A stretch of DNA of 64,000 nt from a virus (Duplodnaviria; Caudoviricetes): positions 1 through 64,000 of IMG/VR virus record IMGVR_UViG_2547132519_000001; one strand, 5' to 3'. The notes under the pieces were generated by a model, which was not told the origin of the DNA, made no database searches, and worked only from the letters and a program-made list of their open reading frames with translations. Each line of letters begins with the position of its first letter. Within the stretch, counting starts at the first letter, position 1. The position numbers and the translations under genes were made by a program. This document shows, one piece after another, positions 11,372-50,846 of this stretch.

Positions 11372-14300
11372 TTATCTTATTCCTGACTGTTGAATTATTG
11401 CTCTCTTTAATCCTCCGCTTAATATTCCATTTGCCAAGCCCTCAGTATCGTTACACTCTTGTATGTTAATGTTACCAAATTTAAACTCTTGTGTAGTAAT
11501 ATTAGGACGATTTGGAGAGAAAGTAGAGTAGTCTGTTTTAGACGGAGTGATTTTCCAAGCAGTAGCTAAGTTTTTAAGTAGAGTATCTTGCTGTTCTGGA
11601 TTAAACACTGCCTCATTTCTATGAAGGATCGCAGAAATTTCATCTTGATCCATCTTCTTTAGGCCAAGTAACTTCATCTTTGCTTCACGGTCAGAGGTGG
11701 ACGATGTACCAACCAACCCATTCTCTATGCCGTTTTTATATGCTTTGCCACCTACACCTGGGCCACTATTTACGTATCCTGAACTATCTTTACGAAACGG
11801 AGCACCATCTTCATCGTCGTCATCGTCTTCACTTGCGTTTTCGAGATTATCCCTTACCTCTTCCAGAACATCAAGCATAGACGCTACATTGTCTGTAAGT
11901 TGCTGCCAGCTTGAAGTGTACTCAGATATTATTCCGGCATTTTGATTATACTGTTTAAATGAGTCTATAAGTTCAGTAGCTGTATTAGCAAGCCCTTGCT
12001 TTATACCAGAAAGAACATTTTCTGCATTGGCAGCCGTACCATTCATTGCACCTAGATAATCATAGATGTTCTGCAAATTACCTTCAGCTGACATGGTTTG
12101 ATTCATTTGAGCCAATAGATTATTTATGCCGGTTAAAGCCTGATCGTAGGAGAGTGTACCTTCTTTGTAAGAGCTGATATAATCCTCCAATAGAGAATAG
12201 ATATTGTTGGTATTATTAATCTGCTCTTGATACTGCCTCAATTGTTCTGCCGTATTTGCGTACATACCAGAGAAGTTATTAAATAGCTCCACATCTTTTC
12301 CAGATAGAACTTTATCCTTCCAACCAACTCCAAGTAAATCATTGGCTTTTGCTTCATTCTGTGCCTGAGTTATTTTTTCGCTAATTTCAGACCACTTATC
12401 AGATATTTTTTGTAAAGAGTCAATCTGATCCTGGTATTTATCATTTAATCCATCAAGAGTTTCCTGTAATTCATCAATCTGAGTCTGGATTTTATCGGTT
12501 TCCATATCAAATTTTGCACTTTGAACTGCTTCTTGGGCATCTCGAAGTTTGTCTGCATTCTGTTCATAGACAACCTGTCCATCGCGGATTACTTTTTCAG
12601 TTGCCTGTTGATTTGCTTTTTGGAGATTGTAAAGGGCCTGTTCGTATTTTAGCTGTAACTGTAGCTCTTTATTTTGCTTATTCATTAAGTCTAGCTTATC
12701 TTGCAAGGCTTTTTTCTGAGCATTATATTCCTCATTTACAGCATCTTTCTGCTCGTTAATGGCATCGATCTGCTCTTTGATGGCTCCGGTTACGGCACTA
12801 ATAACCGTATCGTATTCTTCTTTAACTCCACTCAGTCCATCAGTAACTTTCTGTAGCTCAGAAGAATAATTGTTGATATTGTCAAGTGGCATCTTTAATA
12901 ACTCTTCATTCCACTTTTTGAGATTTTGTACCATAGATGACATCTCAGAATTAACAGACTGTAACTGACCATATAATTCATTCCACCGAGTGGAACCTTT
13001 TTCTTGCTCATCCATTACATTCTTAATTTCAGAAGCCAAATCCTGATACTGATCAATAGTAGTAGCACCGTTAGAAATCAAAGTCTGGTAATAATCAGCG
13101 CTAAGTTTACCACCTGTTGCTGAAGCCACATCACCCCATTTTTCAATTGCAGAAGAAATATCTTTGTACATAGAAACTATAGTATTTAGATTATCAATAG
13201 GCATTTGCTCTAATGCCTGATTGATTTCTTCCTGCTCAATTCTCAGTCCTTGTATTTCATTCTTTGCAGCTTTTACTTTTGCCTGTAATTCCTTGTAGTC
13301 TTTTGATTTGACAGAAACCTTTGCTGCCCTAAGATCAGCCATTTCAGATTCCCATTCAGCAATATCTTGTTCGTTACCAGATATCAAACCCTTATTATTA
13401 TTTTTTTGTTGCTTATAGAAATCTGCATCAATAATTTCTCCGCGCGCTTCCATAAGTTCCATTTGTGACTTGATAATCTTATTGGATTGCTCTAGCTTTT
13501 CGTTTTCAGTATTAATTGCGCTGATTCTATTCTCATGGAGATCCTTAATAGTTTTAATATGTTCTGTTTCGCCGTCAGCCAATTGCTTTTGAGATGCTTT
13601 CAATTTTTCATTTGCGTCGATTGCCGTTTGGACTTTTTTTCCTAAATCGCTTGGTAAAGATTCAATTTCAATTCCACCATTTTCAATCTTATCTTTGTAC
13701 TCAGATGGGATAGCCTTTAGAGCATCTGCATAAGCTTTTGAATACGCTTCGACTTCTTGCTGATATTGTGGTAGCAATGTCTCTGTCTGCATTTTAAGCA
13801 TACCTTGTAATGCATTTTCTTTTGATGCGCCGGGAGCACCAGATTGAATCATTGTGTATAATTCGCCAAGACTTAATCCTGCTTTATCAGCATAACTTTG
13901 TAACTCAGACAGACCTTCGAATGTATTACCAAGACCATTATCAAAAATTGATTTTGCTTTATCAAATTGCTCTTGTGTTAACCCAAGGTATGCAACAGTA
14001 TCCTTATTAGCCAGTTCCTCAAGCTTAGAATACTCATCTTGCATTAATTTAGTTTTGCGAGCAATCCAGTCAACTTCATTTTGAGAGTCTTCTTTTTTCT
14101 TTTTATCTGAACCTGAACCAGCTTTATTAGATTTATTAGCTCCTGCGTAGTTTGCGCTGGCACCTTTACCTTGGTAATTACGAGATGTATTTATGGCATC
14201 TTGTACTTGTTTATCAGCGTCAGCTTTAAGTTTGTCCATCTTTTCTTGATATGCATTTAACTGATTATCAATTGCCATAGACATTCCAAGTCCGGTTCTC

Positions 14301-16531
14301 TGGGATAGAAGGTTATCTAAATTGGCTTTTTGTGTGTTAGCGTCAAAAATATCGCCAGCTTTGGCTTTATTATAAGCTACAAGAGCACTAGTCGCTGAAC
14401 CAATCGTATTAATTAGTGCTATTGCATTCTCAATGTCACCACTCGTATCTAAGATTGTACCGTTTGCATTAGCTTTTTCCAACGCAAGACCAGCAAGTGC
14501 TACTTTTGCAATATCACTTTGAGTTGCTTCATCAATTAGCCCTGGTATTTCGCTTGCTGTAGCATTAGCAAGTGTGTCACTCATTTCTGCTGTATACGCC
14601 TTTTGTGCTGCTAACTGTTCTTGTGTGAAAGCAAGTCTAGATGCCACAACCTCTTCGGCGTTAGCAACACCCATATTTTTTAGCATTGAGGAAATTAAAT
14701 TAGTGTTTTCTTCTGTATAATCGTTTAGTGCGAGTTTACTATCAATCCATGCAGTAGTCAAATCATCAAAAGCTGATTGTGCACCCTTTATGTCCTTGGG
14801 AGAGTCAGATATCGTTTCGATAAAATTGGTATATGATTCACCTAGTTCACCAAAGCTGTCCTTGAAATTTTTATCATCTAATAAGGCGAAGTCAAATGGA
14901 TTCTTGCCCTTCATACTACTCATTATTTTATCCAAGGACTCAAAACCTTCTGAAAGAGAATTTACATTTGATATTACTTCTTCTTTAGATATAGCTAAAG
15001 ATTTTTGACCTGAGTCGCCAACATCACCTTGTACAATATTTAATTTTATTAATTGATCTATGACTTGATCAACTGATAAACCATACTTATCTGCGGCAGC
15101 TTTTAATTTATTAAATACATCATTATTTTCAGCATCATCCATAGCTAGTATATCTTCTTTAGATTTTCCTCGTAAAGATCCTACTATGGTCATGAGATTA
15201 TCTTTATTAGAATTAAGGTCGTCTGCAAAATCATATATACCTGTGTCAGCCTGATTAAATACTTCATTCATAACACTGGCATATTTCTTCCAGTCGGAAC
15301 TGGTTAAATCTATAGTATCTTTAACTTTATTAAGATCATCTCTTGCAGATAAAATCTTCTTTTCATCTCCAGAAGCAATGGCATCATTATATTTTTTAAC
15401 AGCGCTTGTAGCATCACTATACCCTACCGATAATTTGTCGCTCGTAGCTATTTGTGCCACCAATGCTTTATTATAAGTGTCTCCATAATCAGCAATTAAG
15501 TCTTTGGTTTGATTGAGAGACGAACTTGATATGCCAAGAACAGATTTTATGATAGGATCTTTTTCACCATATTTTTCTTTTAAGCTGTCAACGTAGGTCA
15601 TAAAATCATTGATTGCCTTATTAGCTTCAGTGGGGTCAGCACTAAGTCTCAAAGAAAAGGTGCCAGTAGGTGCATATACATCGGGATTTTCTAAATTTAA
15701 TTCATCCTTGTGTGATCTGGCATAGTCAAAGATTGCTTTTCCTGAACCGGAGAACATACCAATATCCTGAGCCACCATGTAGGTTTTCTTTTTAGTCATT
15801 TTCTTTTGAGCTTTATCAATTGTATCTACATTCTCATTTAAATACTTTTGGGCAGCAATTTTATTTAGTTGCCTGATTGCCTCTGTTTGATCTTTATATG
15901 CATCTGTCACAAGATTAAGCCGACCATATTCGTCTCCATATTTCTCATTGAGTTCTTGCTGAAGGGAGAGGAGATCACTCTTTATTTTATGTTGTTCTTC
16001 TTCTGACGTATTGGCATTTGTTAATTCATCATGTAATTTTGAATATCTATTTGCATAATCATCTATAGAACTTGAAACTTCGCCATATGCTTGCGCTGCT
16101 TCGGCAGTTGCTTGTCGAGCTTCTTCAACAGATTGTTTATACTTACTCCATATACCAATACCAGCAGTTACGGCCATTCCAATTAGAAGTAACGGGTTTG
16201 CCATCATTGTAGCCCAGAGACCTTTTAATGCAGATGTAAAACCAGCGGTAGAGAAGCTTGCGCCCTTTTGAGCAGTAGACAATGATGATGTATTAATTGC
16301 AGCTTCAAGTTCTGCCTTACTTAAACCAGAAACTGTAGTTTTTACACCATTTGCATTTTTCTCGAATATTGTCCCAGATAGTATCAATTCTAACTGTGAT
16401 TGTTTTAACTTTCCGCTAGACAATACGCATTTCTGCATACTTAAATCCAATGAATTAAAATAACTCGCTATATTACTACCACTATTTAATTTGCCTAACA
16501 CATTTGAAAGATTTCCGAGGTCTTTAAGTTG
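11372..16531 (-). CDS. Tape measure protein, 3' exon (1,719 codons)
   Basis: Long helical/coiled-coil ORF with ALKGLWATMMANPLLLIG; no Shine-Dalgarno before the TTG at 16534; in frame with the 5' exon after splicing. Confidence 0.88.
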   Translation of the reverse strand, partial: QLKDLGNLSNVLGKLNSGSNIASYFNSLDLSMQKCVLSSGKLKQSQLELILSGTIFEKNANGVKTTVSGLSKAELEAAINTSSLSTAQKGASFSTAGFTSALKGLWATMMANPLLLIGMAVTAGIGIWSKYKQSVEEARQATAEAAQAYGEVSSSIDDYANRYSKLHDELTNANTSEEEQHKIKSDLLSLQQELNEKYGDEYGRLNLVTDAYKDQTEAIRQLNKIAAQKYLNENVDTIDKAQKKMTKKKTYMVAQDIGMFSGSGKAIFDYARSHKDELNLENPDVYAPTGTFSLRLSADPTEANKAINDFMTYVDSLKEKYGEKDPIIKSVLGISSSSLNQTKDLIADYGDTYNKALVAQIATSDKLSVGYSDATSAVKKYNDAIASGDEKKILSARDDLNKVKDTIDLTSSDWKKYASVMNEVFNQADTGIYDFADDLNSNKDNLMTIVGSLRGKSKEDILAMDDAENNDVFNKLKAAADKYGLSVDQVIDQLIKLNIVQGDVGDSGQKSLAISKEEVISNVNSLSEGFESLDKIMSSMKGKNPFDFALLDDKNFKDSFGELGESYTNFIETISDSPKDIKGAQSAFDDLTTAWIDSKLALNDYTEENTNLISSMLKNMGVANAEEVVASRLAFTQEQLAAQKAYTAEMSDTLANATASEIPGLIDEATQSDIAKVALAGLALEKANANGTILDTSGDIENAIALINTIGSATSALVAYNKAKAGDIFDANTQKANLDNLLSQRTGLGMSMAIDNQLNAYQEKMDKLKADADKQVQDAINTSRNYQGKGASANYAGANKSNKAGSGSDKKKKEDSQNEVDWIARKTKLMQDEYSKLEELANKDTVAYLGLTQEQFDKAKSIFDNGLGNTFEGLSELQSYADKAGLSLGELYTMIQSGAPGASKENALQGMLKMQTETLLPQYQQEVEAYSKAYADALKAIPSEYKDKIENGGIEIESLPSDLGKKVQTAIDANEKLKASQKQLADGETEHIKTIKDLHENRISAINTENEKLEQSNKIIKSQMELMEARGEIIDADFYKQQKNNNKGLISGNEQDIAEWESEMADLRAAKVSVKSKDYKELQAKVKAAKNEIQGLRIEQEEINQALEQMPIDNLNTIVSMYKDISSAIEKWGDVASATGGKLSADYYQTLISNGATTIDQYQDLASEIKNVMDEQEKGSTRWNELYGQLQSVNSEMSSMVQNLKKWNEELLKMPLDNINNYSSELQKVTDGLSGVKEEYDTVISAVTGAIKEQIDAINEQKDAVNEEYNAQKKALQDKLDLMNKQNKELQLQLKYEQALYNLQKANQQATEKVIRDGQVVYEQNADKLRDAQEAVQSAKFDMETDKIQTQIDELQETLDGLNDKYQDQIDSLQKISDKWSEISEKITQAQNEAKANDLLGVGWKDKVLSGKDVELFNNFSGMYANTAEQLRQYQEQINNTNNIYSLLEDYISSYKEGTLSYDQALTGINNLLAQMNQTMSAEGNLQNIYDYLGAMNGTAANAENVLSGIKQGLANTATELIDSFKQYNQNAGIISEYTSSWQQLTDNVASMLDVLEEVRDNLENASEDDDDDEDGAPFRKDSSGYVNSGPGVGGKAYKNGIENGLVGTSSTSDREAKMKLLGLKKMDQDEISAILHRNEAVFNPEQQDTLLKNLATAWKITPSKTDYSTFSPNRPNITTQEFKFGNINIQECNDTEGLANGILSGGLKRAIIQQSGIR

Positions 16532-16557
16532 CAATTAAATTAATTAGTAAGTATAAT
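16529..16557 (+). promoter_or_regulatory. Sigma70/SigA promoter for zinc-ribbon gene, overlapping the 3' splice site
   Basis: TTGCAA (16529-16534), 17-bp spacer, TATAAT (16552-16557). Confidence 0.7.
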
Positions 16558-16577
16558 ATATTCAATATAAAAAATTC

Positions 16578-16994
16578 TTGGAGGAGAAAAATATGGCGCT
16601 AATTGAATGTCCTGAATGTGGAAAGCAGGTTAGTGATACTGCAAACGCTTGTCCTAATTGTGGGTATGATATAAAGAGTTTTGTTGAGTATTGCCCACAT
16701 TGTGAATTACTTGATAAAGAAAAGATACTAATGAGTTTTTCAAGAGATCAAAACGTATACACTTGCCCAAAGTGTAACAGAACAATGGGTGTTGCTTCTC
16801 CAGAAGCAGAAGCTAATTGGGCAGCACAGAGACAAATGGAACAAAATCTTCCCAAATGTCCATATTGTAGTTCTACCAATTTGAAGAAAATTTCTGGTCT
16901 ATCTAAAGCTGGTAGTGTAGCTTTGTGGGGTGTTTTTGCCATGGGTAAAGTAAGCAAGCAATGGCATTGTAATAGTTGTAAATCAGATTTTTAA
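16578..16994 (+). CDS. Zinc-ribbon protein with hydrophobic segment (true start probably ATG 16593)
   Basis: Six CxxC pairs; GGAGGAG RBS before MALIECPECG. Confidence 0.85.
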   Translation: MEEKNMALIECPECGKQVSDTANACPNCGYDIKSFVEYCPHCELLDKEKILMSFSRDQNVYTCPKCNRTMGVASPEAEANWAAQRQMEQNLPKCPYCSSTNLKKISGLSKAGSVALWGVFAMGKVSKQWHCNSCKSDF

Positions 16995-17091
16995 TTTATA
17001 TGATAATTCAATCTATCTGAAGTAAATTAACTTTGCTTAATTCATCTATTTCATTTTGTAGTTTATTTATATTTTTATCTAAAGTTAAGTT

Positions 17092-17134
17092 ATAAAACAA
17101 AAAAGGCCTTATTTAAGACCTTTTTTTGTTTTAT
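17092..17134 (-). terminator. Intrinsic terminator inside the intron (bidirectional, stronger on minus strand)
   Basis: Minus RNA AGGUCUUA-AA-UAAGGCCU-UUUUU within a longer inverted repeat, between convergent genes. Confidence 0.75.
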
Positions 17135-17140
17135 AATATT

Positions 17141-18034
17141 TTATTCGATTTCACTATTTAAATTATCAAATGTCTCCGATCTAACCATTTCTGAGCTTCC
17201 ATCAGCGGACGACATACAATGATATGCTTGATTGTTAGTCATTAATATGAAGCTTATGATGGTTTTCTTATCATAGTATGTACTATTTCCTTCCACAGCA
17301 AAACTCAACATTTTTCTTTCGCCAGGACTGATAGTTATGGAGTCTAAATTTATTACCGATGTTGATCCTGCTTCTACAAGTTTTAAATCGCGATTTAAAT
17401 TACTATAATCATGATTATATAATTTGGCGAATTCACTGTATATAATTACATCATTGTCACTATTATTTTTATATTCCATTACTATGTATTTGGCATTGGG
17501 GTTAGTTTTGGTGTTCATGTATACCTTATACTTAGGTATATTATTTGTCTTGTTAACCCTTGCTCCGTCATCACCATAATAAGCGCTGTCCTTAGCATAG
17601 CAATTACGTAGCATATATCCATCTGTACCTACCCAGTACCATTTTCCATTGACTTTAAGATCTGTATTTTTCGGGTATGAGCCATCTGCATACTGATACC
17701 ACCAACCATTTTCATCTTGTCTCCAGCCGTCAGAATTATAAATAGAAGAGTACATATCATTATTTAAACTGTGTCCCATGATTGCTCCGTCGGAATCAGT
17801 TTGATACCCGTTAAATAACTGTGTATTAGGCAATAAGTATCCATCTTGGTTAGTGTAATATAATTTCCCTTCCTTTATGAAAAAACTACAAGTTGGGTAC
17901 GTTCCATCGTTATATCTATACCATGTTCCAACATTATCTGTTGCCCAAGCCCCCATATATACTGTTGCATAAGAAACTATTGTACAATTAAAAATAAATA
18001 ACATAAAAATAAAGCTAGTTAGTATCTTTTTCAT
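17141..18034 (-). CDS. Secreted protein with cell-wall (choline-binding-type) repeats
   Basis: Signal peptide; GWRQDENGWWYQYADGSY and KWYWVGTDGYM repeats. Confidence 0.85.
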   Translation of the reverse strand: MKKILTSFIFMLFIFNCTIVSYATVYMGAWATDNVGTWYRYNDGTYPTCSFFIKEGKLYYTNQDGYLLPNTQLFNGYQTDSDGAIMGHSLNNDMYSSIYNSDGWRQDENGWWYQYADGSYPKNTDLKVNGKWYWVGTDGYMLRNCYAKDSAYYGDDGARVNKTNNIPKYKVYMNTKTNPNAKYIVMEYKNNSDNDVIIYSEFAKLYNHDYSNLNRDLKLVEAGSTSVINLDSITISPGERKMLSFAVEGNSTYYDKKTIISFILMTNNQAYHCMSSADGSSEMVRSETFDNLNSEIE

Positions 18035-18088
18035 GTAATTTACTCCTTTATCTCTTTCATTTAATAGGATCTACTCTCTGGCGTTCAA

Positions 18089-18775
18089 TTATTCCTCTAT
18101 GTGAAAACGATACAATTTCTTAGCCGGGATTATCCGATAGTATGAATTAACGAAAGAATCGCAGCTAACTGTGAAGTTTAAGGTTGTATTTTCATTGACG
18201 GAAAATTGCTGATATTTACCTACCATAAATATGAAGTCAGTACCTTGGCTGTTTGCTGGAACTATACCATAATCGCAAGGTGTAAAGGTATTCGTATCAT
18301 ACATGAGCAATTTTTTTATCATTCCGTCAGTGTTTACTTCAACAACTGGATCTATAACAATATCCTCTTTCCCTTCATTTATAAATCTACACAGTATTAA
18401 ATCACTAGTTTTTTCTTTTGATCCAGTGGCCCACACAACACTAAAATTTAGACCAGGTGTATTATCTTCAAGTACTCGTCCATCTGCGTCAACTCTGTAT
18501 CCCTCTGGAGTTGTCCAATTATAGGTTAAGCTACCATCAGTGTATAAGTAATGCTTTATGCCATTAACCTCAATAAGTCCGGTTTGCATATATCCATTAG
18601 AATCGAAGTGATATTTTTCTTCGCCAATGGTTAACCAATCGTTCTTAACATAACTACCATCATCATTCTGATACCACCAACCCACACCATCCTGTTTCCA
18701 TTCTCCAGCAAATGATACAATCGTACTGCTTATAGCAATAGTCGCTGACATTAGTAACACAAGTAACTTTCTCAT
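18089..18775 (-). CDS. Secreted protein with cell-wall (choline-binding-type) repeats
   Basis: Signal peptide ending SFA; GEWKQDGVGWWYQNDDGSY, YHFDSNGYMQTG. Confidence 0.85.
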   Translation of the reverse strand: MRKLLVLLMSATIAISSTIVSFAGEWKQDGVGWWYQNDDGSYVKNDWLTIGEEKYHFDSNGYMQTGLIEVNGIKHYLYTDGSLTYNWTTPEGYRVDADGRVLEDNTPGLNFSVVWATGSKEKTSDLILCRFINEGKEDIVIDPVVEVNTDGMIKKLLMYDTNTFTPCDYGIVPANSQGTDFIFMVGKYQQFSVNENTTLNFTVSCDSFVNSYYRIIPAKKLYRFHIEE

Positions 18776-18804
18776 ACAAATCCCTCCTGTAAGCTGTTTT
18801 ATGT

Positions 18805-18813
18805 ATTATAACA
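18805..18813 (-). promoter_or_regulatory. Extended -10 promoter for the cell-wall-binding genes
   Basis: TG-T-TATAAT about 30 nt upstream of the ATG at 18775. Confidence 0.55.
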
Positions 18814-18864
18814 TGGAGAGAGTATTAATTCTATAAAAAGAGAAATTTAAGTATTGGATTTAAA

Positions 18865-19332
18865 CTATGATAACTCTAAACGCTCATATAATTCACATAA
18901 AGCTACTTGGACATTCGTGACTCGATCACTTACTTCGCTAATAGTGATAGGTTTTAAACCATCATTAGAAGGAAACTTTGAAATTAATTCATCAATTTCC
19001 ATCTTTTTAGTATCATCTAACTCATAGTGATATTTGGTTTCATAAGTAATTTTATCTACTGGCTCTATATCGATATAATCAACCATTTCTGTGTTGAATT
19101 CACCAGTTTCAATTTCTGACTCATCTAAAATGGGAATTTTAATTTCTCTTTGTTTTTTGACCTCTTCATTGACTGTTATTTTGTTCTCAATTACTTCTGA
19201 TACAATCTTATATGCAGTGTAATAAATCTGTTCACCTTCTGGTAAATTTTCCATTGGGATCGAATTATCAAGATCACCAACTAAACAATAATTACCTGTT
19301 AAATAATTATTGCTATCTATCTGAACTTTCAT
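18865..19332 (-). CDS. Hypothetical protein following tail fibres (possible assembly chaperone)
   Basis: 155-aa acidic ORF with GGAGG RBS; C-terminal VQVALCELYE. Confidence 0.7.
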   Translation of the reverse strand: MKVQIDSNNYLTGNYCLVGDLDNSIPMENLPEGEQIYYTAYKIVSEVIENKITVNEEVKKQREIKIPILDESEIETGEFNTEMVDYIDIEPVDKITYETKYHYELDDTKKMEIDELISKFPSNDGLKPITISEVSDRVTNVQVALCELYERLELS

Positions 19333-19344
19333 GTTAAAATCCTC

Positions 19345-20928
19345 CTATGATTGATACGTTTTATATTTGATACCTACGACTTTTGTTATATGAGATTGGG
19401 TTTGACTGATAGAGAGACTGGTATGTGTTGAGGTAACAGGAAGAATGTTAGTATAAGCAGGAGAAGTCTGATACCCAAAAAGACATGATATATAAGTATT
19501 AGTTGGCTTTAAATCTATAAGTGGTATTATCTCATCTTTAGAAATTTCCTTATAATCATAATGTTTTGCCGATACATTATTTATACTATAAAAATAAACT
19601 CCCAACTTATCATAATTGTTTATAGAATCTAATAAATTAATTGTATTAGAAACTGCCGTAGTACCATCTGTTCCTATATTGCCTTCAAATAATACTGTTT
19701 CTTCTATTAAGCCTTGAATAGACATGAAATATGTAGGTTCATACTTTATACAAAATAAAACAGCAGTATTCGTGGGTCTGGAGGTGTATACTGTTGGTTG
19801 ATTTATAAACCCGCTAGTGGTTATCCATCTGTTTGATCCGCCTATTTGGGAAATATATATACCTTTAGAGCTGTTAATTGTATTATCAATATTACTAGGT
19901 GCAGCTCCTCCTGTAGTTAAATTTGATCCAATCCAAAAATCATTAAGATTGGCATTTGTTGAAGTATAAAGATAAGGATATATTGTACCACTTTGATGTA
20001 CACCGATCTCCTCAGATAATTTTTCTACTTTATCTCCATGGTAGCCCCGTATAAACTCATTTCTCAAATCTGGCAAAGCAAAGGTCGCGGTTCCATCTCC
20101 GCCAAAGAAGTTAAAAGTGCCAAACTGATCCTTTATATATTGAGATAGGTGTGGATAGTCTGTAATATTGTGAACAGAACCATCGCAAACGAGATAGTGG
20201 CTCGGTGCTGTCTTACCCATTACAGATATAATATTACCAACTGGGGTATCCTCAATGCCTTGGGTAGTGTTAATATAATTTACTGGGTCGATAGTAACGC
20301 TTTCTATGTTTATTCCTTTAATAGAAGTTATGGATACCTTGTCTACCTGTGAGATACTAAAAGGATTATTGACCCCGTCTATATGTATTACAGTAGGAGA
20401 CTTAAACCACGCTCTTATACTCATATGTGCTCCACCCCAAGAGTTAGTAACACTTGTTGTAACGTTATCCATTAAAAAAAGAACTGACCCATCTGACGGA
20501 GAATATGTATTTGTATTATTGTAAACTATTTCAGTAACATTGAGCATATTTAATTCTGACTTAAATTTATAAGTGGAATCTACAGCAAATTGAACACTAA
20601 TTATATTATAGTTTTCTATGCTTTCTTTTAATGGAATATCTATATTAATTGATGTAAAGACAGGAGAACCGTTATTTGCTGGAATTGTAACAGGAAAAGT
20701 AAATGTAGAACTCAATAATTCCTTGATTCCTCTCGTATTTACAGTTTTCTGTGCTATACTTATATCATCCATAGTTTTTACTGCATCTTGTAATCCAGTA
20801 ATAGCTGATATTGGATGTGAATCCTCAGCATCTCTTCCAGGAATAGAATTATGAGTACCTGCTATAGTTTTAACAAATTTTTTAACACTATCAACTGTAA
20901 CACCTAAATTTGTTTTATTGATTCCTAT
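19345..20928 (-). CDS. Tail-collar fibre paralog 3 (frame extends 52 codons upstream of 20772 to an ATA)
   Basis: Tail collar motif PVGNII...YLVCDG...FALPDLRNEFIRG; extension IGINKTNLG...HPISAITGLQ matches paralog 2; RBS GAGGTGAG. Confidence 0.8.
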   Translation of the reverse strand: MGINKTNLGVTVDSVKKFVKTIAGTHNSIPGRDAEDSHPISAITGLQDAVKTMDDISIAQKTVNTRGIKELLSSTFTFPVTIPANNGSPVFTSINIDIPLKESIENYNIISVQFAVDSTYKFKSELNMLNVTEIVYNNTNTYSPSDGSVLFLMDNVTTSVTNSWGGAHMSIRAWFKSPTVIHIDGVNNPFSISQVDKVSITSIKGINIESVTIDPVNYINTTQGIEDTPVGNIISVMGKTAPSHYLVCDGSVHNITDYPHLSQYIKDQFGTFNFFGGDGTATFALPDLRNEFIRGYHGDKVEKLSEEIGVHQSGTIYPYLYTSTNANLNDFWIGSNLTTGGAAPSNIDNTINSSKGIYISQIGGSNRWITTSGFINQPTVYTSRPTNTAVLFCIKYEPTYFMSIQGLIEETVLFEGNIGTDGTTAVSNTINLLDSINNYDKLGVYFYSINNVSAKHYDYKEISKDEIIPLIDLKPTNTYISCLFGYQTSPAYTNILPVTSTHTSLSISQTQSHITKVVGIKYKTYQS

Positions 20929-22189
20929 TTAACTCACCTCCTTAGTTTTGAAAAGTTTTATATTTAATACCTGTTATTTTAGTTACATATGATTGATACA
21001 TTAAGAAATTTAAGTTTGAATAACTAGAAGTTTTTTCTATATCCGCAAAACTGATATGCGGACTTTGCCCCCAGTTAAGAGTTAGATGGGTATCAGGTTG
21101 CAATGATTCTATTAAATCTTTAAATCTTTTTGATGGAAAAGAATTATAATCAAGTCTTACTGCCGTACCTATAGAAGCTTGATAATAAAAACCTATTTCA
21201 TCATATTCCAAAACAGAAGTGGTTAAACTTATAGACCGCGATACTTGAGTTGTACCGTTTGTTCCCACAAGTCCCTCCCATAGAATAGTATCTTCTATAA
21301 GACCTTGTATAGACATAAAATATGTAGGTTCGTATTTAATACAATACAATACCGCTATGTTGGTTGGCCTGGCTGTGTATTTACCAATTCCGGTTGAAGA
21401 CCAATTCTGAGCTGAGGAGTTTACAAGCCACCCTGTATTATTTGTTCCTTGTATTATCGAATCCATATTGCTTGGAAATTGATCTGCGGAATTATAATTT
21501 GAGGTAAAAGCGACTTTAGAGTTACCTGTATATAAAAAAATATTTTCAGTAGGATTTTGATGAATGCCAATCTCACCAGATAATTTCTCAGTTTTACTTG
21601 CATGATATCCACGTAAAAACTCATTTCTTAAATCAGGTACTGCAAAGGTAGAAGTACCGTCACCACCAAAGTAATTAAAGCTTCCAAATTCAATTTTAAT
21701 ATGTTGAGCTAAAAATGGATAATCTGTTATATTATAAATAGCCCCATCACATGTGAGATAGTGAGATGGAGGGGTCGTACCCATATATGAAAGTATATGT
21801 CCTACAGGTGCATCTTCTATGCCCTTATCGGAATTTACGTATTCAACTGGATCTACTATTGTTTTTTCCATTTCTAATATATTCAGATATGATGTATTTT
21901 GAAGTTTTGCTCCTGTTTGAGTTCCTCCTATAACTGTTACTTTTATACCAACTTTAATATCTGTTTTTGGTGTAATAACGCAAAAAGATGGTAATATTGC
22001 TTGATTTATAGTAAGCGCAACATAATCTACCGTCGTGCTAATTGACTTTTTTTGCTGTAAAATAAGGACAGTTGGAGTAATTCACTCTAAGTTCTGTTCT
22101 TGAACAACAAAGGTTGTAGCATTTCACTGCTATTTTACTTCAAACTTTTGTATCATTTTACTCCATATTTTCTTGGAGGATTTTAAAAT

Positions 22190-22555
22190 ATGACAAAAGC
22201 TCAAAAAGATGAATACTGGATGGATTGCATCCAGCAGTGCCGCGTAAGCGGCTTATCTGATTACGCCTGGTGCAGTCAGAATGGTATACCTACCAGCTCT
22301 TTTTATTACAATATAAAGCGGCTGAGGAAGAAAGCCTCTATGATTCCTGACTCTGTTCCAAAAGTTCTAGAGAAAACAGAAGTTGTACCAATTCACTACA
22401 ACGAACTGCAAGAAACAAAAGCAGTTCTTCCTAAAAAACAAACGGATCGGATTGCAATCCATCTGGAATACAATGGCTTTGTTTTGGCTATCAGTAACAA
22501 TGCAGATGCCGCCATTATTACAGCAACATTAAATGCGTTGCGACAACTGTGCTAG
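22190..22555 (+). CDS. tnpA: IS66 accessory protein TnpA
   Basis: SGLS..AWC..NGI..SSFYY HTH; first IS66 ORF. Confidence 0.88.
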   Translation: MTKAQKDEYWMDCIQQCRVSGLSDYAWCSQNGIPTSSFYYNIKRLRKKASMIPDSVPKVLEKTEVVPIHYNELQETKAVLPKKQTDRIAIHLEYNGFVLAISNNADAAIITATLNALRQLC

Positions 22556-22902
22556 GTGATCTCTCCGGCGTGGCAAAGATATTTCTTGTGGCCGGCTACA
22601 CCGATATGAGGCGTAGCATAGACGGTCTTATGGCAATTGTCCGGGATACCTATGAGTTAGATCCTTTCAGTAATTCCCTTTTTCTTTTCTGCGGAAAAAG
22701 ATGCGACAGACTGAAGGCACTGCATTTTGACAAAGATGGTTTTGTGTTACTTTATAAACGGTTAGATTCCGGCCGTTTCCAGTGGCCACGTAATTCAGAA
22801 GATGTTAGAAATTTGACCAGACAGGAATTCCGTTGGCTTATGGAAGGTCTTTCTATTGAGCAGCCAAAGGCAATTAAACCCGTTGCCAAAAAGCCCTTTT
22901 AA
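22549..22902 (+). CDS. tnpB: IS66 accessory protein TnpB
   Basis: TDMRRSIDGL, LFLFCG, DGFVLLYKRL..GRFQWP. Confidence 0.93.
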   Translation: MLGDLSGVAKIFLVAGYTDMRRSIDGLMAIVRDTYELDPFSNSLFLFCGKRCDRLKALHFDKDGFVLLYKRLDSGRFQWPRNSEDVRNLTRQEFRWLMEGLSIEQPKAIKPVAKKPF

Positions 22903-22990
22903 GCATCTGATAAAGTACACGCAGAACCGCTTATTTACTGGCTTTGCGGTCTCCTTTGTGGTATAATAAGTATATCATTCAAGGAGGTAC

Positions 22991-24592
22991 ATGGTCATGA
23001 AAAAGTCTGTTGAAACCGAAGATCTTAACATGAATCTGCTGGTCAGTAATCTGCTCAAACAGCTGGAAGCAAAAGATCATCAGATGGAACAATTAAACCA
23101 GACCATTGCAAACCTCACGGAAACAATTAATGAACTGAAACGAAAAATCTTTGGTATTTCCAGTGAGAAATCATCGAACTTACCTTACATTGACGGACAA
23201 CTCAGCTTGTTCGATCAGTTGGGAATTGATGAACACGTTCACGAACCGGAAATGATCAATGTGACAGCGCATGAGAAGAAAAAATCCCGTGCTACGCATG
23301 ATGAACTTACAAAAAATGTACCGATAAGGACCATTGAGCTTTTACTGGAAGGTGATTCTCGTAACTGCCCTTACTGTAATACTAAAATGGAAGATATCGG
23401 CTCCAAAGTTGTTCGTGAAGAGATTCATATCACTCCAGCAAAAGTGGAACGTGTCCAATACGTACAGCATAGCTATGCATGTCCACAGTGCCGTGAAGAT
23501 GGTGATTCAACCATTGAGAAGGCACCTGTGCCAAAGCCACTCATCAATCACAGTATGGCTTCTGCTACAGCGGTCTCTTACATCATGTATCAGAAGTGTA
23601 CGAACTATCTTCCGTTTTATCGTCAGGAGCAGGATTGGGCACAGCTGGGAGTCAAGCTGAATCGTGGAACCATTGCCAGCTGGTTCAATACATGCGCAGA
23701 AGAATATCTGGAACCCGTTTATGAGAGATATCATGAGTATCTTCTTAGGCAGTCCGTCATTCATGTAGACGAGACGACATGCCAGGTTTTGAATGAAGAT
23801 GGCAAGACTCCAGAATCAAAGTCTTACATATGGTTGTACACCAGCGGTGCATTTGAAGAGCACCGGATTGTGCTTTACGAGTATCAACCATCAAGGGGCG
23901 GCTATCATGCAGCAAAGTTCCTTGCTGATTATCACGGGTTTGTCCATACGGACGGCTTCAGCGGATACAACCGTTTGAGTGACATTACCCGATGCGGGTG
24001 CTGGGCACATCTTCGAAGATATATGTTCGAAGCGATTCCCAAGAAGAAGGGATCATGCTCCGAAAAATCTGAAGCCTACACAGGCTATTCCTACTGCAAC
24101 CAACTCTTTCAGATAGAGAAAGAACTGAAAGACTTAGAACCAGAAGAGCGACAGAAAAAGCGTCTTGAACTGGAGCGACCTGTACTGGATGCATTCTGGA
24201 AGTGGGTGAATGGGATAAATGCCCTTGGCGGATCAAAGCTTGCCAAGGCAATTAACTATGCCCAAAACCAAAAATCGTATATGGAGAATTACCTCCTTGA
24301 TGGAAGATGCTCCATTAGTAATAACGCAGCTGAAAGAGCCGTGAAATCATATGTTATGGGAAGAAAAAACTTCCTCTTTCATGACACTGTAAAAGGTGCC
24401 AAAGCAAGTGCAATTGTTTACACGCTTGCAGAAACAGCCAAAGCAAATGGATTAAACATCCGTCTTTATCTGGAAACAGTTATGACTAAGATGCTGGACT
24501 ACAAAAATGAGCCCGATAGTATCCTGGAAGAACTGATGCCTTGGTCAGAAGCAATGCAAAAATCCTGTGGCTTGAATAAAGGTACTATTTGA
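22991..24592 (+). CDS. tnpC: IS66 DDE transposase TnpC
   Basis: Coiled coil, zinc finger, HVDET, HTDGFSGY, CWAHLRR, SNNAAER. Confidence 0.95.
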   Translation: MVMKKSVETEDLNMNLLVSNLLKQLEAKDHQMEQLNQTIANLTETINELKRKIFGISSEKSSNLPYIDGQLSLFDQLGIDEHVHEPEMINVTAHEKKKSRATHDELTKNVPIRTIELLLEGDSRNCPYCNTKMEDIGSKVVREEIHITPAKVERVQYVQHSYACPQCREDGDSTIEKAPVPKPLINHSMASATAVSYIMYQKCTNYLPFYRQEQDWAQLGVKLNRGTIASWFNTCAEEYLEPVYERYHEYLLRQSVIHVDETTCQVLNEDGKTPESKSYIWLYTSGAFEEHRIVLYEYQPSRGGYHAAKFLADYHGFVHTDGFSGYNRLSDITRCGCWAHLRRYMFEAIPKKKGSCSEKSEAYTGYSYCNQLFQIEKELKDLEPEERQKKRLELERPVLDAFWKWVNGINALGGSKLAKAINYAQNQKSYMENYLLDGRCSISNNAAERAVKSYVMGRKNFLFHDTVKGAKASAIVYTLAETAKANGLNIRLYLETVMTKMLDYKNEPDSILEELMPWSEAMQKSCGLNKGTI

Positions 24593-25110
24593 TTTTTCGA
24601 GAGGTGAAAAATCCAGAAAGATCAATACACTTCTTTATGTAGCGCTTACGATTTATACCATTAGCACATTCACAAACTCCTGCTTTACCAATTACTTTAG
24701 AATTTGTATAATCATATAAACAATAATACATATAGCCTTGGTAAGATATTAGTCTTACCAGGGCTTCTATATTGTAAGTGACATTGGCCTTTAATGTATA
24801 TAATTTAGTAGTTTGATCATAATCAATACCATTATTTACTATTGGAATAAATGGTATTAATAAATTCACTACAGGAGTATAATCTAATGCATCTGTAACA
24901 CTTGATAAACATTGAGAAAGCTTTTGATTTACAGTTCTCTGTGCAACATTAATATCATTAACCTTATTTATTTCGTTTTGCAATCCGGTAATAGCTGATA
25001 TAGGATGAGCATCGATATCATCTCTCCCGGTAATCGCGTTATGAACGCTGGGAATTTTACCTGTAATAAAGCTTTTAATGCTTTCAATCGAAATACCTAA
25101 ATTTGTTTTA

Positions 25111-27504
25111 CTAATTCCCATTTAATATACCCTCCACAAATTCTTTGATTTCTGAATCGGTATATGTGGTATCGTCTCCTCCACCTGTTGAAGAAGTTGA
25201 TCGGTATCTAATTCCAATAACTTTATCTAACCGAGATTGATATTGATTTAAATCTAATCTATGGCTGGTAGAAGTTTTTTGTATATCTGTATAATCAATT
25301 ACATTAGAGTATCCCCAAACTAGCGAAATAGAATGATTTATATTTGTACTATTTTGGCATTCAATGATTTGACTAGGGTATATCTCCTTATATTGTGGAC
25401 GTAAAGAACCATCTGATCTTGTACAAGTGAAGAGAAAACCTAATTTATCATAATTTGTAAAAGAGTCTTTTAAGCTAATTGAATTCGATACAGCTGTTGC
25501 CTTGGTGGTTCCGACGTTACCTTCCCATAACACAACCTCATCCACTAAACCATTAATATTCATAAAGTATGTAGGTTCATATTTAATACAATAAAGTACA
25601 GCAGTGTTCGTAGGACGAGATGTATATAGTTTATTACCTCCACCAGCCCAGTTAGACACAGATCCATTATTAGACCATCCTCTAACCACAGTGGATTTAA
25701 TTAAATTGTCTGGATTTTGAGTAGACAAATATTTTCCATATTCTCCATCCATATATATTCTAGAATTCCCATCAACTAAAAAATTTATATGTTGAGTTCC
25801 GCTTTGATGAATTCCAATTTCTCCAGATAACGGTTCGGTTTTATCTCCATGATAACCACGAAGAAATTCATCTCTTAAATCTGGTACAGCAAATGTGTTA
25901 GTACCATCTCCTCCAAAAAAATTGAATGTTCCAAATTGGTCTTTAATATGTTGAGAAAGATATGGGTAATCTGTGATATTATAAGATTGACCATCACAAG
26001 TGAGGTAATGCTTAGGTGAAGTTTTGCCCATCTGTGGTAGAATACTGCCAACTGGAGTGTCCTCTATGCCTTGTGTGGTATTCACATAATTTACAGGATC
26101 AATGGTGACGTTTTCAATATTAACTCCTTGCACAGATGATAGCACAACATTAGCCCAATCTGTTGCTGTAGATGGAGTGCTTGCATTAAATAAAAATAAA
26201 TGAGTTGCATCTTTAAACCAGAAACTAAAAGACGCACTAAAGCTGCCCCATGCTCCTGCTGTTGTAGTTCCTTGTATTTTATTAACATTCATGGCAGAAC
26301 CATTAGTAAAATTTAAAACCTCAGAATTATTAAAAACTATACTAGATGTTTTAAATGTATAAATAGGATAAGAAATTTTAACAGTATTGGTGTTTACTTT
26401 TAGTTGAATGTTAATCATATCATAATTAAGAATACTATCTTTAAGCGTAATTGTCTGATTTATTGCTGTAAGATTGGCCGTCCCCATGGTTAAAGCTGGA
26501 GTTAGATTAAACGAATATTCTTGACTCAATAGTTCTTTAGTGCCTTTCGTATTTACCGTTTTTTGCGCTATGCTAATACCATTAGTAAGTTCCTCAACTA
26601 CAGCTATATCATATGATATTTTAGTACTGCTCCATGTTTTTGATAATGAAGTTACGCTATCATCTATAACTTCAGAAGTGCCTCCAACGGCACTCAACAC
26701 ACCATTACTATCTACAAATGTGGTTGAATTATCAGGCTTAACACCACCAAGTACATTAGGAGAAGCACTTGGAAGGGTGTAGTTATTTAATCCGGCAAGT
26801 TTCGACTTTTCGTCAGTAGAAAAATTATTTTGAGATAATCCATATCCTGAAACTTTATCTACTTTATTATTTAAAAATGAGTCTGTTTCTACTTTTGAGT
26901 AATAATTGGTTAAATCAATATCTGTGGTACCTATATTTGCCCATTCGTTGTTTATGTAAAGCCACTGGTTGTACGAATTTTTATCGATTTCCTTTTGTAA
27001 GTACATAGTTGTTGCTGAGATATTTTCTGATGGAAGAATCTCTATTACCTCAATAGTCATTGAATTTAAATTTGCAATTAATGAATTAATCTCGGTCTTT
27101 GTATAAGATTCCATCTTACTATAATAGTTCATTAAGTTTGAAGCAGATATTGTAATAAAATCTGAATCGTTAGTTAATTGAGAAATTAGTGTAGGTATTT
27201 TTGGTTTGTCCTTTAAATCATTATAGCTTCCTGTGGAAGCAGCATCAGAAAATCCTAACTGTTTGGATGTTATATTCCCTACCAATTCCACTCCATTGAT
27301 TACCGGCCTGTTATAAAGAGATTCGTAATCACTTGCGCTTCCAGAAACAGTTTTATAAGTTCCATCGTCAAATAACGCTTTGTTTCCTTCGCCATCAGAA
27401 GTAAGCTTTTGAATATTTTCTTTTTGATCTGAGGTGATAATTTCCTCAGCAACTTTGTCTGTATAACTCTTACCCGCGGCTAGAGTTGTTAAATCAATTC
27501 CCAT
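25111..27504 (-). CDS. Tail-collar fibre paralog 1 (797 aa)
   Basis: ASTGSYNDLKDKPKIPT and LPSASPNVLGGVK fibre motifs; collar PVGSIL...LTCDG...FAVPDLRDEFLRG. Confidence 0.85.
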   Translation of the reverse strand: MGIDLTTLAAGKSYTDKVAEEIITSDQKENIQKLTSDGEGNKALFDDGTYKTVSGSASDYESLYNRPVINGVELVGNITSKQLGFSDAASTGSYNDLKDKPKIPTLISQLTNDSDFITISASNLMNYYSKMESYTKTEINSLIANLNSMTIEVIEILPSENISATTMYLQKEIDKNSYNQWLYINNEWANIGTTDIDLTNYYSKVETDSFLNNKVDKVSGYGLSQNNFSTDEKSKLAGLNNYTLPSASPNVLGGVKPDNSTTFVDSNGVLSAVGGTSEVIDDSVTSLSKTWSSTKISYDIAVVEELTNGISIAQKTVNTKGTKELLSQEYSFNLTPALTMGTANLTAINQTITLKDSILNYDMINIQLKVNTNTVKISYPIYTFKTSSIVFNNSEVLNFTNGSAMNVNKIQGTTTAGAWGSFSASFSFWFKDATHLFLFNASTPSTATDWANVVLSSVQGVNIENVTIDPVNYVNTTQGIEDTPVGSILPQMGKTSPKHYLTCDGQSYNITDYPYLSQHIKDQFGTFNFFGGDGTNTFAVPDLRDEFLRGYHGDKTEPLSGEIGIHQSGTQHINFLVDGNSRIYMDGEYGKYLSTQNPDNLIKSTVVRGWSNNGSVSNWAGGGNKLYTSRPTNTAVLYCIKYEPTYFMNINGLVDEVVLWEGNVGTTKATAVSNSISLKDSFTNYDKLGFLFTCTRSDGSLRPQYKEIYPSQIIECQNSTNINHSISLVWGYSNVIDYTDIQKTSTSHRLDLNQYQSRLDKVIGIRYRSTSSTGGGDDTTYTDSEIKEFVEGILNGN

Positions 27505-27559
27505 TTATTATGTTTCACCTATATCTTTCTGGTTTATGATATTTTAAAGGTAAGTTAGT

Positions 27560-28005
27560 CTTCATATCTTATACACGTTGGAACATGCATTAACAGCATA
27601 TGAAATATGGCTTTCATGTACTGCGAGGAATGGTGCTCTCTGAACATTCCCTATCATTAATGACTTTACCCCAACATTGCTTACGCAATTGCTACTATTG
27701 GATTATCTGTCATGACTGTACGTAGATAGGGTTAGCTGCTTCGTTAGTGATTGTAAATCTGTCGGGAATTATGTTTTATCCCTAGAAAACTCACTCCGGT
27801 GTGTTAACCGTTTGACTTATTTGCCTTATTTTTCGGCTTCTCCAAATAGGAGAGTAGTGAGTATTACACTTTCAAGCAATTAATCCTCTTTTTATTTTAA
27901 AACTTTCATCTCTAGGAATTGTTGTGTCGCCATTATGACATTTCCTTCCCCTAGATAGGCCGACTTAAATCCTCGGAAATTTAAGTAACTCGTTTTACAG
28001 AGTTA
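27560..28005 (-). ncRNA. Group I ribozyme core (P1-P9 5' strand)
   Basis: P element AAUUGCUUGAAAG (27881-27869), Q CGAAGCAGC (27743-27735), R GUUCAGAGAGCA (27645-27634), S AAUGCAUGUUCC (27591-27580); P3, P4, P6a, P7, P8 all pair. Confidence 0.9.
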
Positions 28006-30042
28006 ACCGTAGTTTTTTACAAATGATGTGATACCTGCACCAGTTAAAAGCGTTGACAGCACTCCAAAATTCTTTATAACTCCATCTAAGCCACTGGATA
28101 GTGCAGTGCTAGAATCAACAAGGATTTTTAAGAAATCAGAGTTTAAGACAGTTAAAGAAAGTGATTGGAATGAGGCTTCAAATTGCTTGGTCTTTGCATC
28201 TAATGATTCCATCCATCTTTCTTGTTCTTGCTGAGCACTCCCAGCAGAGTTTAATGATTCCTGGAGAGCCTTTCCAACTTGTCCAGATTGAAACGACTGT
28301 AAAAGCGCCATAACTTGGTTACCGCGCTGTTTTCCTGCTATAATTTCCAGCAAGTCTGCTTGTTTAGTTTGACTAATATGATCCCATACTTCTGAAATTC
28401 CTTTAATAATTTCATATGTAGACTTAAAATTACCTTTGTCATCGAAAATATTAACTGCTCCATCAGTACGATTTAAGATTTGAGTCTGTATTTTTGATAT
28501 AGACTCAACGTTTTCGTATTCTTCCCCTAACTCCTCTAGGTTACCTTTCATCCCACGAACACGCATACTTAATACTTTTAAAGTATTTCCCATTTCAGAA
28601 GCGTCTTGTATAATCTCTGAGCCACCAGTTAGCATGGCTAATGTCTGATTAATATCATTTCCAGCCGATTGAAGAGCAGAAGCGGAGTTTTTTAAACCGG
28701 TACCTAAACCTGCGGAATCAACTGCAAATTTGTTTCCTAAAGCATTAAGCGAGTCAACAATATTAATACTATTTGAAGCTTCAATATTAAAAGCTTTCAT
28801 TGCGGTTACTAAATCGGAGACAGCCGTTTTGTCATCAACTTCTCCAACATTCGCATATATAGATGATATTTTAGCTAGTTCAGACGATTCATCTATGTCA
28901 TATCCTAATTTTGCCCAATCAGCCGTCTGCTCTACTAATCCAGATATAGTTCTGCCTAAGTCTTTGGCGTTTTTCTTTGCACCATTTAAGAATTGGGCGT
29001 ATTTGTAATCTGTCTCGTCCGTAACTTTATAAAGATTAGTCATCGCTGTATCTACTTCGTAAACTGACTGATACATCTTATGGAAAGAGTTTGCTCCAGC
29101 CATAATGACGGATGTTATAGACAACCATGAGGTGAACTTAGATCCTGCATCTTTAATTGAGTCCGTAAATGATTTCCCTAACAGCCCGGCCTCTCTTGCG
29201 GAGATTTGAATTCTCATAAATTCAGCTTCGATCTTTTTCAATTCTGGTACCGTCAAATCGTCTGCTGATTTTAGTTTTTCTACCAACTGATTTATATCAG
29301 AGCCGTACTTCTTACTAGCTTTAGAATTGTTTTCCATCCACGTAACTATGTTGCCAGCTTTTGTTAGACGTTGTGTTTCGGAAGCAAAACCTTTAAAATT
29401 AGCTGTTAGGTCTTTGAGTCGATTATTTACTTTTGAATACTCTACATCTAGACTTTTTGCATTAGCAATTAAAGAACTACTGTCGGGGTTTGCTTTTAGT
29501 TTCTCGAATGCAAGATTAACATTTAGTAATTCTTTTTGTATTTGATCTGCCGATAAACCGAGCTGCCGAAAAGATGCAGTCATTGTTGATATTTTTGACT
29601 CGTTCTTTCCAACATCTATTGCCTGGGAAATTTTCGATGCTGAAGCAGCTGCCTTATCTGCTTCTATAGATTCGCGTCTATACATATCAGCCATTTGCTG
29701 TAGCTCTGATGATTTTGACCCAATTGACTGATATGTACTTTTTCTTAAGTCTGCAAAAGATTGTTCAACAATCTTATTTTTTTTAACAACTTTCTTTGCT
29801 TGATCTTCATAAGCTTTAAATATGTCGTTTCCATTTAACTTTGTACCAAATGTTTTATTAAAATCACTTGCTATCTCTTGAGATACTGCTTTCAATTGAT
29901 TGCGGAGAGAAGCGGTTTTTAATTCAGGAATAATATCAATTGAATATTTATTGATAATATTTTGGACTTCCTTCAATTCTGTATTTATACCTGATTTGTC
30001 TAATACTGTCTGTAATAGAACTTTAAAATCAGTATTTGCCAT
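28006..30042 (-). CDS. Tape measure protein, 5' exon (TP901-type core, 679 codons)
   Basis: VDTAMTNLYKVT, MGNTLKVLSMRVRG, FKSTYEII, IAGKQRGN; GAAAGGAG RBS before MANTDF at 30042; ends ...NYG then in-frame TAA as first intron bases. Confidence 0.9.
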
Positions 30043-30091
30043 TACGTTTCTCCTTTCAATGCATAAAAAAAGAACGGAGTTACCGTTCAAA

Positions 30092-50773: not shown

Positions 50774-50846
50774 CTGGCCAAGTAGGAATTGAACCCACGA
50801 CACTTTGCTTAACAGGCAAATGCTCTACCAACTGAGCTATTGGTCA
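50774..50846 (-). tRNA. tRNA-Asn(GTT)
   Basis: TGACCAATAGCTCAGTTGGTAGAGCATTTGCCT-GTT-AAGCAAAGTGTCGTGGGTTCAATTCCTACTTGGCCAG; one A-C mismatch in the acceptor stem; no encoded CCA. Confidence 0.92.

Follow-up and report, generated by a model that had tools for sequence, protein, structure and literature searches.

The 11,474-nt insert (28005..16532, minus strand) that parts the tape-measure gene of a Lachnospiraceae-type prophage at 28006/16531 is most probably a group I intron in which the 3' splice site is specified by P10, here a long pairing between a guide close to the intron's 5' end and the first bases of exon 2. The window, by which we mean the whole stretch of 64,000 nt that was analysed, comes from an IMG/VR provirus record of 134 kb with a completeness estimate of 82%, and its features are collected in Table 1. 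As a mechanism of the intron family the proposal is held with slightly greater confidence still. On present-day splicing of the 11.5-kb copy in the window we are about evenly divided, because of a terminator-like hairpin, the antisense genes of an IS66 element, defects in the guide and the absence of a spliced form from assembled contigs.

Table 1. The split tape-measure gene and its insert, in window coordinates, listed from exon 1 to exon 2
Feature	Position	Strand	Remarks
Exon 1	28006..30090	-	N-terminal tail tape-measure, 695 aa; C-end ..FVKNYG, last codon GGT; PF10145 (phage minor-tail domain)
H1 hairpin	27986..28005	-	intron nt 1-20; begins at first intron base; in-frame stop TAA here
H2 hairpin = extended P10 guide	27961..27985	-	intron nt 21-45; loop UUCCGAGG 27978-27971; 3' strand 27970-27961
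P1 internal guide GCC	27958..27960	-	G27960.U28006, C27959-G28007, C27958-G28008
Ribozyme core	27580..27957	-	intron nt 49-426; P2, P3, P4, P5 + extension, P6-P6c, P7 bulged A, P8, L2-L8 loop-loop pairing
Cargo	16995..27579	-	sense-strand tail-fibre-like genes, small ORFs, choline-binding-repeat genes
Tail-collar-domain fibre-like genes (three)	27504-25111, 21871-20942, 20772-19345	-	inside intron
IS66-family insertion sequence	22011..24649	+	three ORFs, 22190-24592; antisense to intron, 2.6 kb
Choline-binding-repeat genes	18775-18089, 18034-17141	-	inside intron
Bidirectional terminator-like hairpin	17099..17126	.	12 pairs, A-run + T-run; ~570 nt upstream of 3' splice site
Antisense zinc-ribbon ORF	16578..16994	+	conserved C-terminal module accompanying intron family
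Last intron base G, omega-G position	16532	-	G here in 18/18 mapped loci
P10 target, first 21 nt of exon 2	16511..16531	-	pairs with guide 27980-27961; unique in window
Exon 2	11372..16531	-	C-terminal tape-measure, 1,720 codons; begins QLKDLGN, first codon CAA

On the evidence of sequence comparison, the two ORFs on either side of the insert are one interrupted tape-measure gene, since they represent consecutive parts of a single tape-measure profile (phrog_4211, positions 557-948 for the exon-1 ORF and 955-1674 for the exon-2 ORF) and since uninterrupted homologues exist. The exon-1 ORF (695 codons, minus strand) runs on to 28003 and the exon-2 ORF opens in frame at 16531; inspection by eye for a start codon or ribosome site belonging to exon 2 itself revealed none. 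All 120 long homologues that were fetched match the end of exon 1 and 31 of them match both halves, and in three (P0002, P0003 and P0017) the halves adjoin directly, the projected gap being 0, as in ..AFVKSFQ/NLKMAG... The placement of the junction by reading frame and pairing agrees with these intron-less proteins. Intron-less alleles were met only among the long proteins, a motif search of the fetched loci giving 0 matches, and neither junction region had a blastn match among 50,697 phage records.

The end of exon 1, used as a query, brought up 34 viral loci and 15 genome loci, the named genome records being mostly Lachnospiraceae (Roseburia, Lacrimispora, Enterocloster, [Clostridium] asparagiforme), and in many of these loci the gene halves lie 0.9-7 kb apart. 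Twelve of the 34 viral loci keep the initial ~430 nt of the insert, the intron RNA lies at the same tape-measure codon across relatives, and the core in the window is 89% identical to that of L003. Searching with the tail pattern yielded 51 stretches, 19 of them matching the profile, of which 7 were new contigs with the conserved RNA; the intron RNA profile recognises L088, L094 and L095 strongly and L089 and L090 weakly, and L096 was recognised by eye. Both junctions were mapped in 18 loci, with inserts of 864-11,474 nt, and in each of the 18 the final base is U for the 5' exon and G for the insert. A second type of intron, missed by the family profile, is present at the same codon in L005/L087, L028, L091, L093, L097 and L100. 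Within this type L087 has a 6-bp P1, and L028, a multi-kb insert dissimilar in sequence from the family, has a similar long hairpin guide that matches its own 3' exon over roughly 13-18 bp (one case). The tape-measure codon looks like an intron hotspot.

The complementarity of a guide at 27980-27961 to the first 21 nt of the 3' exon (16531-16511) was originally noticed in a sequence-only reading, and both the letters at these places on the minus strand and the layout of the duplex hold up: ten uninterrupted pairs, a bulge of one base, a further block of 7 bp, an A.C mismatch and a terminal G-C pair. The guide also lies, as claimed, directly beside the U.G pair of P1, G27960 pairing with the last base of exon 1 (U28006) before two further G-C pairs. 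Its strand is unbroken, passing from H2 to G45, which pairs with the first base of exon 2, and then to G46-C47-C48, which pair with the U-G-G of exon 1. RNAduplex joins guide and exon in the window by 17 pairs at -21.5 kcal/mol, an energy reached by 0 of 500 shuffled exons, and omits the terminal G-C pair because the A.C mismatch precedes it. The guide 10-mer has two occurrences in the window, exactly at guide and exon (0.11 expected), and the 21-nt exon word has no second match in the window when up to 3 mismatches are allowed. P1 itself is a helix of merely 3 bp, paired in 20 of the 20 rows with letters, with the U.G wobble in all of them and with covariation at its middle pair (AU 14, CG 3, GC 3). 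That this P10 is extended agrees with the comparison at hand, the 17 pairs far exceeding the 4 bp given for the P10 of one phage intron (PMC3428280). Relative to L003 and L088, the guide in the window has a 1-nt deletion and the A.C mismatch (-21.5 versus -27.3 and -25.3 kcal/mol), and these changes, together with the single C.A mismatch found in its P8, could reflect early decay.

The sequence-only reading had looked to covariation between guide and 3' exon across homologous loci for confirmation, and this was found: 10 of 12 guide types pair best with their cognate exon. Summed over the 12 types the cognate energy is -218 kcal/mol, which 0 of 20,000 permutations reach (mean -120). The exceptions are L008, whose guide prefers the L002 exon, and L010, a near tie with the similar exon of L024. 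Cognate duplexes range from -11 to -29 kcal/mol, and in 9 of 14 loci not one of 500 shuffled exons matches the cognate. Between the window and L002, three pairs within the 10-bp block are doubly changed and compensated. The pairing to the 3' exon comprises 8 to 22 pairs family-wide, with 21 uninterrupted pairs in L002, 22 with one bulge in L089 and 8+9 in L083. The guides of L008 and L009 (= L094, L095) pair with an exon of the L002 lineage at -29.5 kcal/mol as against -16.5 and -18.7 with their own exons, and this poorer fit suggests that the intron moved laterally, and recently, between tape-measure alleles. One part of the original proposal fared less well, namely that the length of the guide is tied to the 11-kb distance to the exon; the tie is weak because a long guide is a family trait that is also present in 1.1-kb introns (L089, 22 bp), and insert length and pairing energy are not significantly correlated over the 12 guide types with duplicates removed (rho -0.48, p 0.11).

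The changes in the stem of H1 are compensated between the window and L002, and H1 stays folded in 18 of 18 cofolds. For H2, the earlier proposal was right that the guide would form a hairpin, which folding predicts, but not in drawing it with an 8-nt loop: in the minimum-energy fold, two U.G pairs extend the stem to 10 bp and close the loop to 4 nt. When leader and exon are cofolded, H1 is retained and H2 is opened wherever its stem complements the exon, and trading the hairpin for the duplex is energetically favoured at each of the 18 loci (-4 to -24 kcal/mol). Loop bases are among the paired bases in every family member, and in five short members (0.86-0.99 kb) the pairing consists of a few proximal pairs and 7-8 pairs to the hairpin loop alone. 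Such constant participation of the loop in the modelled duplexes fits the idea that the loop nucleates pairing, without proving it.

Covariation supports a model in which the first ~430 nt of the insert form a structured RNA of group I topology. In this model P3 and P7 cross, P6-P6c has a GNRA loop, there is a large P5 extension, P4 and P5 are joined by A-rich strands, and P3-P8 follow in the canonical group I order; the helix names are given by analogy with the textbook group I scheme, their support being the covariation. From 11 sequences RNAalifold predicted 72 pairs, and compensated changes mark 34 of these. In the core model of 83 pairs scored over 21 sequences, 88.6% of cells are paired compared with 39-43% when partners are slid by 1-3 columns, changes on both sides occur in 52 of the 83 pairs, and the observed score is reached by 0 of 500 shuffles. 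Every cell of P3 (100%) and 96% of those of P7 are paired. A column-by-column covariation scan was uninformative because of the small number of clades (1,140 candidate pairs).

The register of P7 was fixed by aligning the divergent members L089, L090 and L096, which by the textbook scheme presumably bear the classical conserved elements of the group I core; initial candidates for P7 had been dropped after failing covariation by eye. The pair flanking the P7 bulge, beyond it, is GC in 12 rows and AU in 8. The bulged base of P7 adjoins a G-C pair that we take to be the guanosine-binding site, and 18 of the 21 rows have G-C there, while G.G stands in L089, L090 and L096 (columns 471 and 532 of our own alignment), where either the alignment register is at fault or the guanosine site is unusual. 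RNAalifold also paired the region of the 5' splice site with the conserved 3' tail, a pairing that was rejected in favour of P1 because members with GCU at the exon end cannot form it yet form P1. In the window a single candidate long-range helix, linking the core's end to the bases ahead of the 3' splice site, was seen and set aside. The P5 extension of ~110 nt, present in all other members, is missing from L013 (11189-11529), which marks this domain as peripheral.

As to class, the exon-terminal U lies in a U.G pair, the last base of the intron is G, P10 lies beside P1, and P3-P8 are in order with a pseudoknot, all of which are group I traits. The Rfam Intron_gpI model gave no match in the window at the gathering score, none in 15500-29000 at E<=10 and none on the compact L013. 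That model is weak on some subgroups, so that the non-match lowers the certainty of the class assignment without excluding group I membership. The sole Rfam match in the window at the gathering score is a tRNA gene at 50774-50846 (minus strand, 65.7 bits).

The pairings and their covariation, the fold of the core and a junction that keeps the reading frame are observed, and from them we infer the following order of events. The entire catalytic core would lie within the first ~430 nt, and all that follows it would be dispensable cargo. The 5' exon would be held by only 3 bp, those of P1 with its U.G pair, and the 3' splice site, which has no conserved intron structure adjoining it, would be set by the terminal G together with the 17-bp P10 (intron nt 26-45 with the first 21 nt of exon 2). 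As P1 and P10 are formed by one continuous intron strand, they would bridge the ligation junction in the manner of a splint. Prior to docking, the guide would be folded as H2 and stacked on P1 as an extension of it; the loop of H2, being complementary to the exon, would nucleate pairing, and the exon would then displace the 5' strand of H2.

Tail fibres, repressors, insertion sequences and a nuclease of defence-like character are all seen among the cargo, which varies by locus, L002 carrying a GmrSD-N/NsnA-like protein and an S24 repressor and L003 NYN and YbjQ proteins. The L002 protein (14767-16515, plus strand, 582 aa) matches the GmrSD N-terminal domain with an E value of 5e-22 and PADLOC NsnA with 1e-28. 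The interior of the intron may, to judge from these genes, serve as an island for defence or accessory functions. An antisense zinc-ribbon ORF lies beside the 3' splice site in the window and in 10 of 12 relatives examined; its C-terminal module has two CxxC pairs flanking a hydrophobic stretch (e.g. L024:11671-11994, minus strand), the relatives of the protein are mostly viral, and a search of the ORF for a nuclease family detected none. No conserved RNA was found next to the 3' splice site among the loci compared. Pfam scans of 28 insert ORFs revealed no IS200/IS605 or IS607 transposase or TnpB genes, and LAGLIDADG, GIY-YIG, HNH and His-Cys box families were not found in the insert ORFs scanned, a subset in which small ORFs are partly covered. 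In the window, further tail genes follow downstream of exon 2. The IS66 element, a separate insertion, truncates the 3' end of a 178-aa ORF (24585-25121, minus strand) and brings further sense-strand hairpins. It is absent from a relative, ~88% identical, that has the same cargo, the joint 22008/24669 being present in one X6 contig, and the insertion is therefore recent; IS66-only contigs, stand-alone and of high depth, occur in X2 and X3.

It is in this cargo that the best-surviving alternative has its footing, namely that the intron in the window is a relic in which IS66, internal terminators and the 11.5-kb span block splicing, so that the tape-measure gene is dead and the prophage defective. 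We regard this as a real possibility, if one we would judge to be the lesser likelihood. The antisense IS66 genes, a recent arrival lacking in the ~88% relative, and the terminator-like hairpins on the sense strand would hinder the making of a single 11.5-kb precursor, the defects in guide and P8 are not found in L003 and L088, and the record is estimated to be 82% complete. Yet both exons are still open (695 and 1720 codons), the P10 duplex still amounts to -21.5 kcal/mol, the core is 89% identical to that of L003, and relatives with inserts of 4-7 kb retain perfect guides. The spliced joint 28006/16531 is absent from the contigs of four runs (RNA-library and DNA), which are silent either way on splicing, as contigs may be DNA and may drop rare forms; an X6 RNA-library contig, from the relative ~88% alike, runs unspliced over the 5' junction.

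A terminator and antisense genes between core and exon 2 speak also for a joining of the two halves in trans, a transcript of exon 1 and ribozyme ending within the cargo and exon 2 being transcribed separately and captured by the guide. An energy of -21.5 kcal/mol, initiation penalty included, suffices for bimolecular capture, and a 3' splice site that has no conserved intron structure adjoining it is in keeping with such a route. However, a promoter scan found 57 candidates where 53.8 were expected from shuffles, an absence of excess that singles out no sense promoter ahead of exon 2, and family members with 0.9-kb inserts need no such route; we consider joining in trans quite improbable as an account of the window.

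About equally improbable, in our estimation, is that the guide chiefly serves the spread of the intron, the 24-nt match formed by P1 and P10 allowing an excised intron to reverse-splice into intron-less transcripts. Intron-less alleles do exist, no homing-endonuclease family appeared in the ORFs scanned, and the better fit of the L008/L009 guide to the exon of another lineage is what would be expected after lateral transfer. But the endonuclease scan covered part of the cargo ORFs, and forward ligation of the exons needs the same pairing, so that roles in spread and in splicing are inseparable with the present data. There is, finally, hardly any likelihood that the complementarity arose by chance, as one of the inverted repeats of AT-rich DNA, or that it marks a DNA transposon's end. 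Imperfect inverted repeats of at least 14 nt are indeed common, with 86 pairs in the same 11.7-kb AT-rich stretch, and the argument accordingly rests on position at both junctions and on covariation. But one arm belongs to the insert while the other lies beyond it, the two adjoining both junctions, none of 500 shuffles attains the energy found here, compensated changes extend over 12 guide types, a recombinase is absent from the inserts of most relatives in the ORFs scanned, and the shuffles, the covariation and the scoring of the core fold already contradict both ideas.

Our verdict is thus for a cargo-tolerant group I intron with a P10 of 17-22 bp. Should the choice of the 3' splice site truly lie with the long P10, then an extension such as engineers give to group I ribozymes already exists in nature, and the covarying pairs of guide and exon, with variants that use the loop only and others that use the full duplex, could guide the design of ribozymes for cis- or trans-splicing or for circularising RNA. 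The tolerance of an essential phage gene for 1-11 kb of inserted accessory genes would also be accounted for, and gut Lachnospiraceae prophages would prove to have an accessory-gene hotspot of a new kind. It is tempting to go further and speculate that this is a natural splint design in which a minimal P1 and a P10 of 17-22 bp free the choice of 3' site from whatever lies between core and exon, that the intron has therefore become a safe harbour where kilobases of accessory DNA gather within an essential tail gene, and that copies with terminators or antisense genes may assemble their mRNA in trans, in which case tail assembly in such copies would be conditional on RNA-RNA capture; taken as a whole we think this unlikely.

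Group I introns with a remote 3' splice site have a precedent in the nrdD (sunY) intron of phage T4, in which an ORF lies 3' of the core and intron-intron helices close to the splice site, together with a short P10, bring the 3' end into place. The family described here differs in having no conserved 3'-terminal intron structure. A literature search, covering mainly openly available articles, found neither an extended P10 nor a giant or cargo-carrying group I intron in bacteria or phages.

The nearest relatives by location are the group I introns carried by prophage tape-measure genes in the Bacillus cereus group (Tourasse and Kolsto 2008, PMC2504315). They share with the present family a group I intron in a tape-measure gene of a Firmicutes prophage and the adaptation of P1 and P10 to the site, but they belong to IA1/IA2, with a P1 formed with the last 4-6 nt of the exon and an ordinary P10 (PMC2504315), whereas here P1 has 3 bp and P10 17-22 bp. 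The present family further differs in that the core is wholly 5'-terminal and is followed by up to 11 kb of cargo. In overall plan there is a likeness to IStrons, which combine a group I ribozyme with an IS200/IS605 or IS607 element (Tourasse et al. 2014, PMC4227781) and likewise place the ribozyme 5' and foreign genes 3', with the 3' splice site 1-2 kb from the core. IStrons, however, carry TnpA/TnpB-type genes and are described there as having target specificity on the 5' side only and variable 3' flanks (PMC4227781), whereas the present family has no TnpA/TnpB-type genes in the ORFs scanned, lies at a single codon of a single gene, and forms an extensive pairing with the 3' exon.

For sheer size the comparison is with the ND5-717 group I intron of corallimorpharian mitochondria, which spans 18-19 kb and encloses many ordinary genes (Chi et al. 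2019, PMC6545197). The intron in the window differs in that its cargo comes after a complete core and in that its host is a bacterial prophage. A functional parallel is to be found in engineered trans-splicing group I ribozymes, for which extended guide sequences are used (PMC6155759, PMC3895272). There as here, pairing beyond the short native helices would hold a distant or separate exon, but the engineered extension, as those reports describe it, recognises the 5' substrate, whereas the natural extension proposed here recognises the 3' exon.
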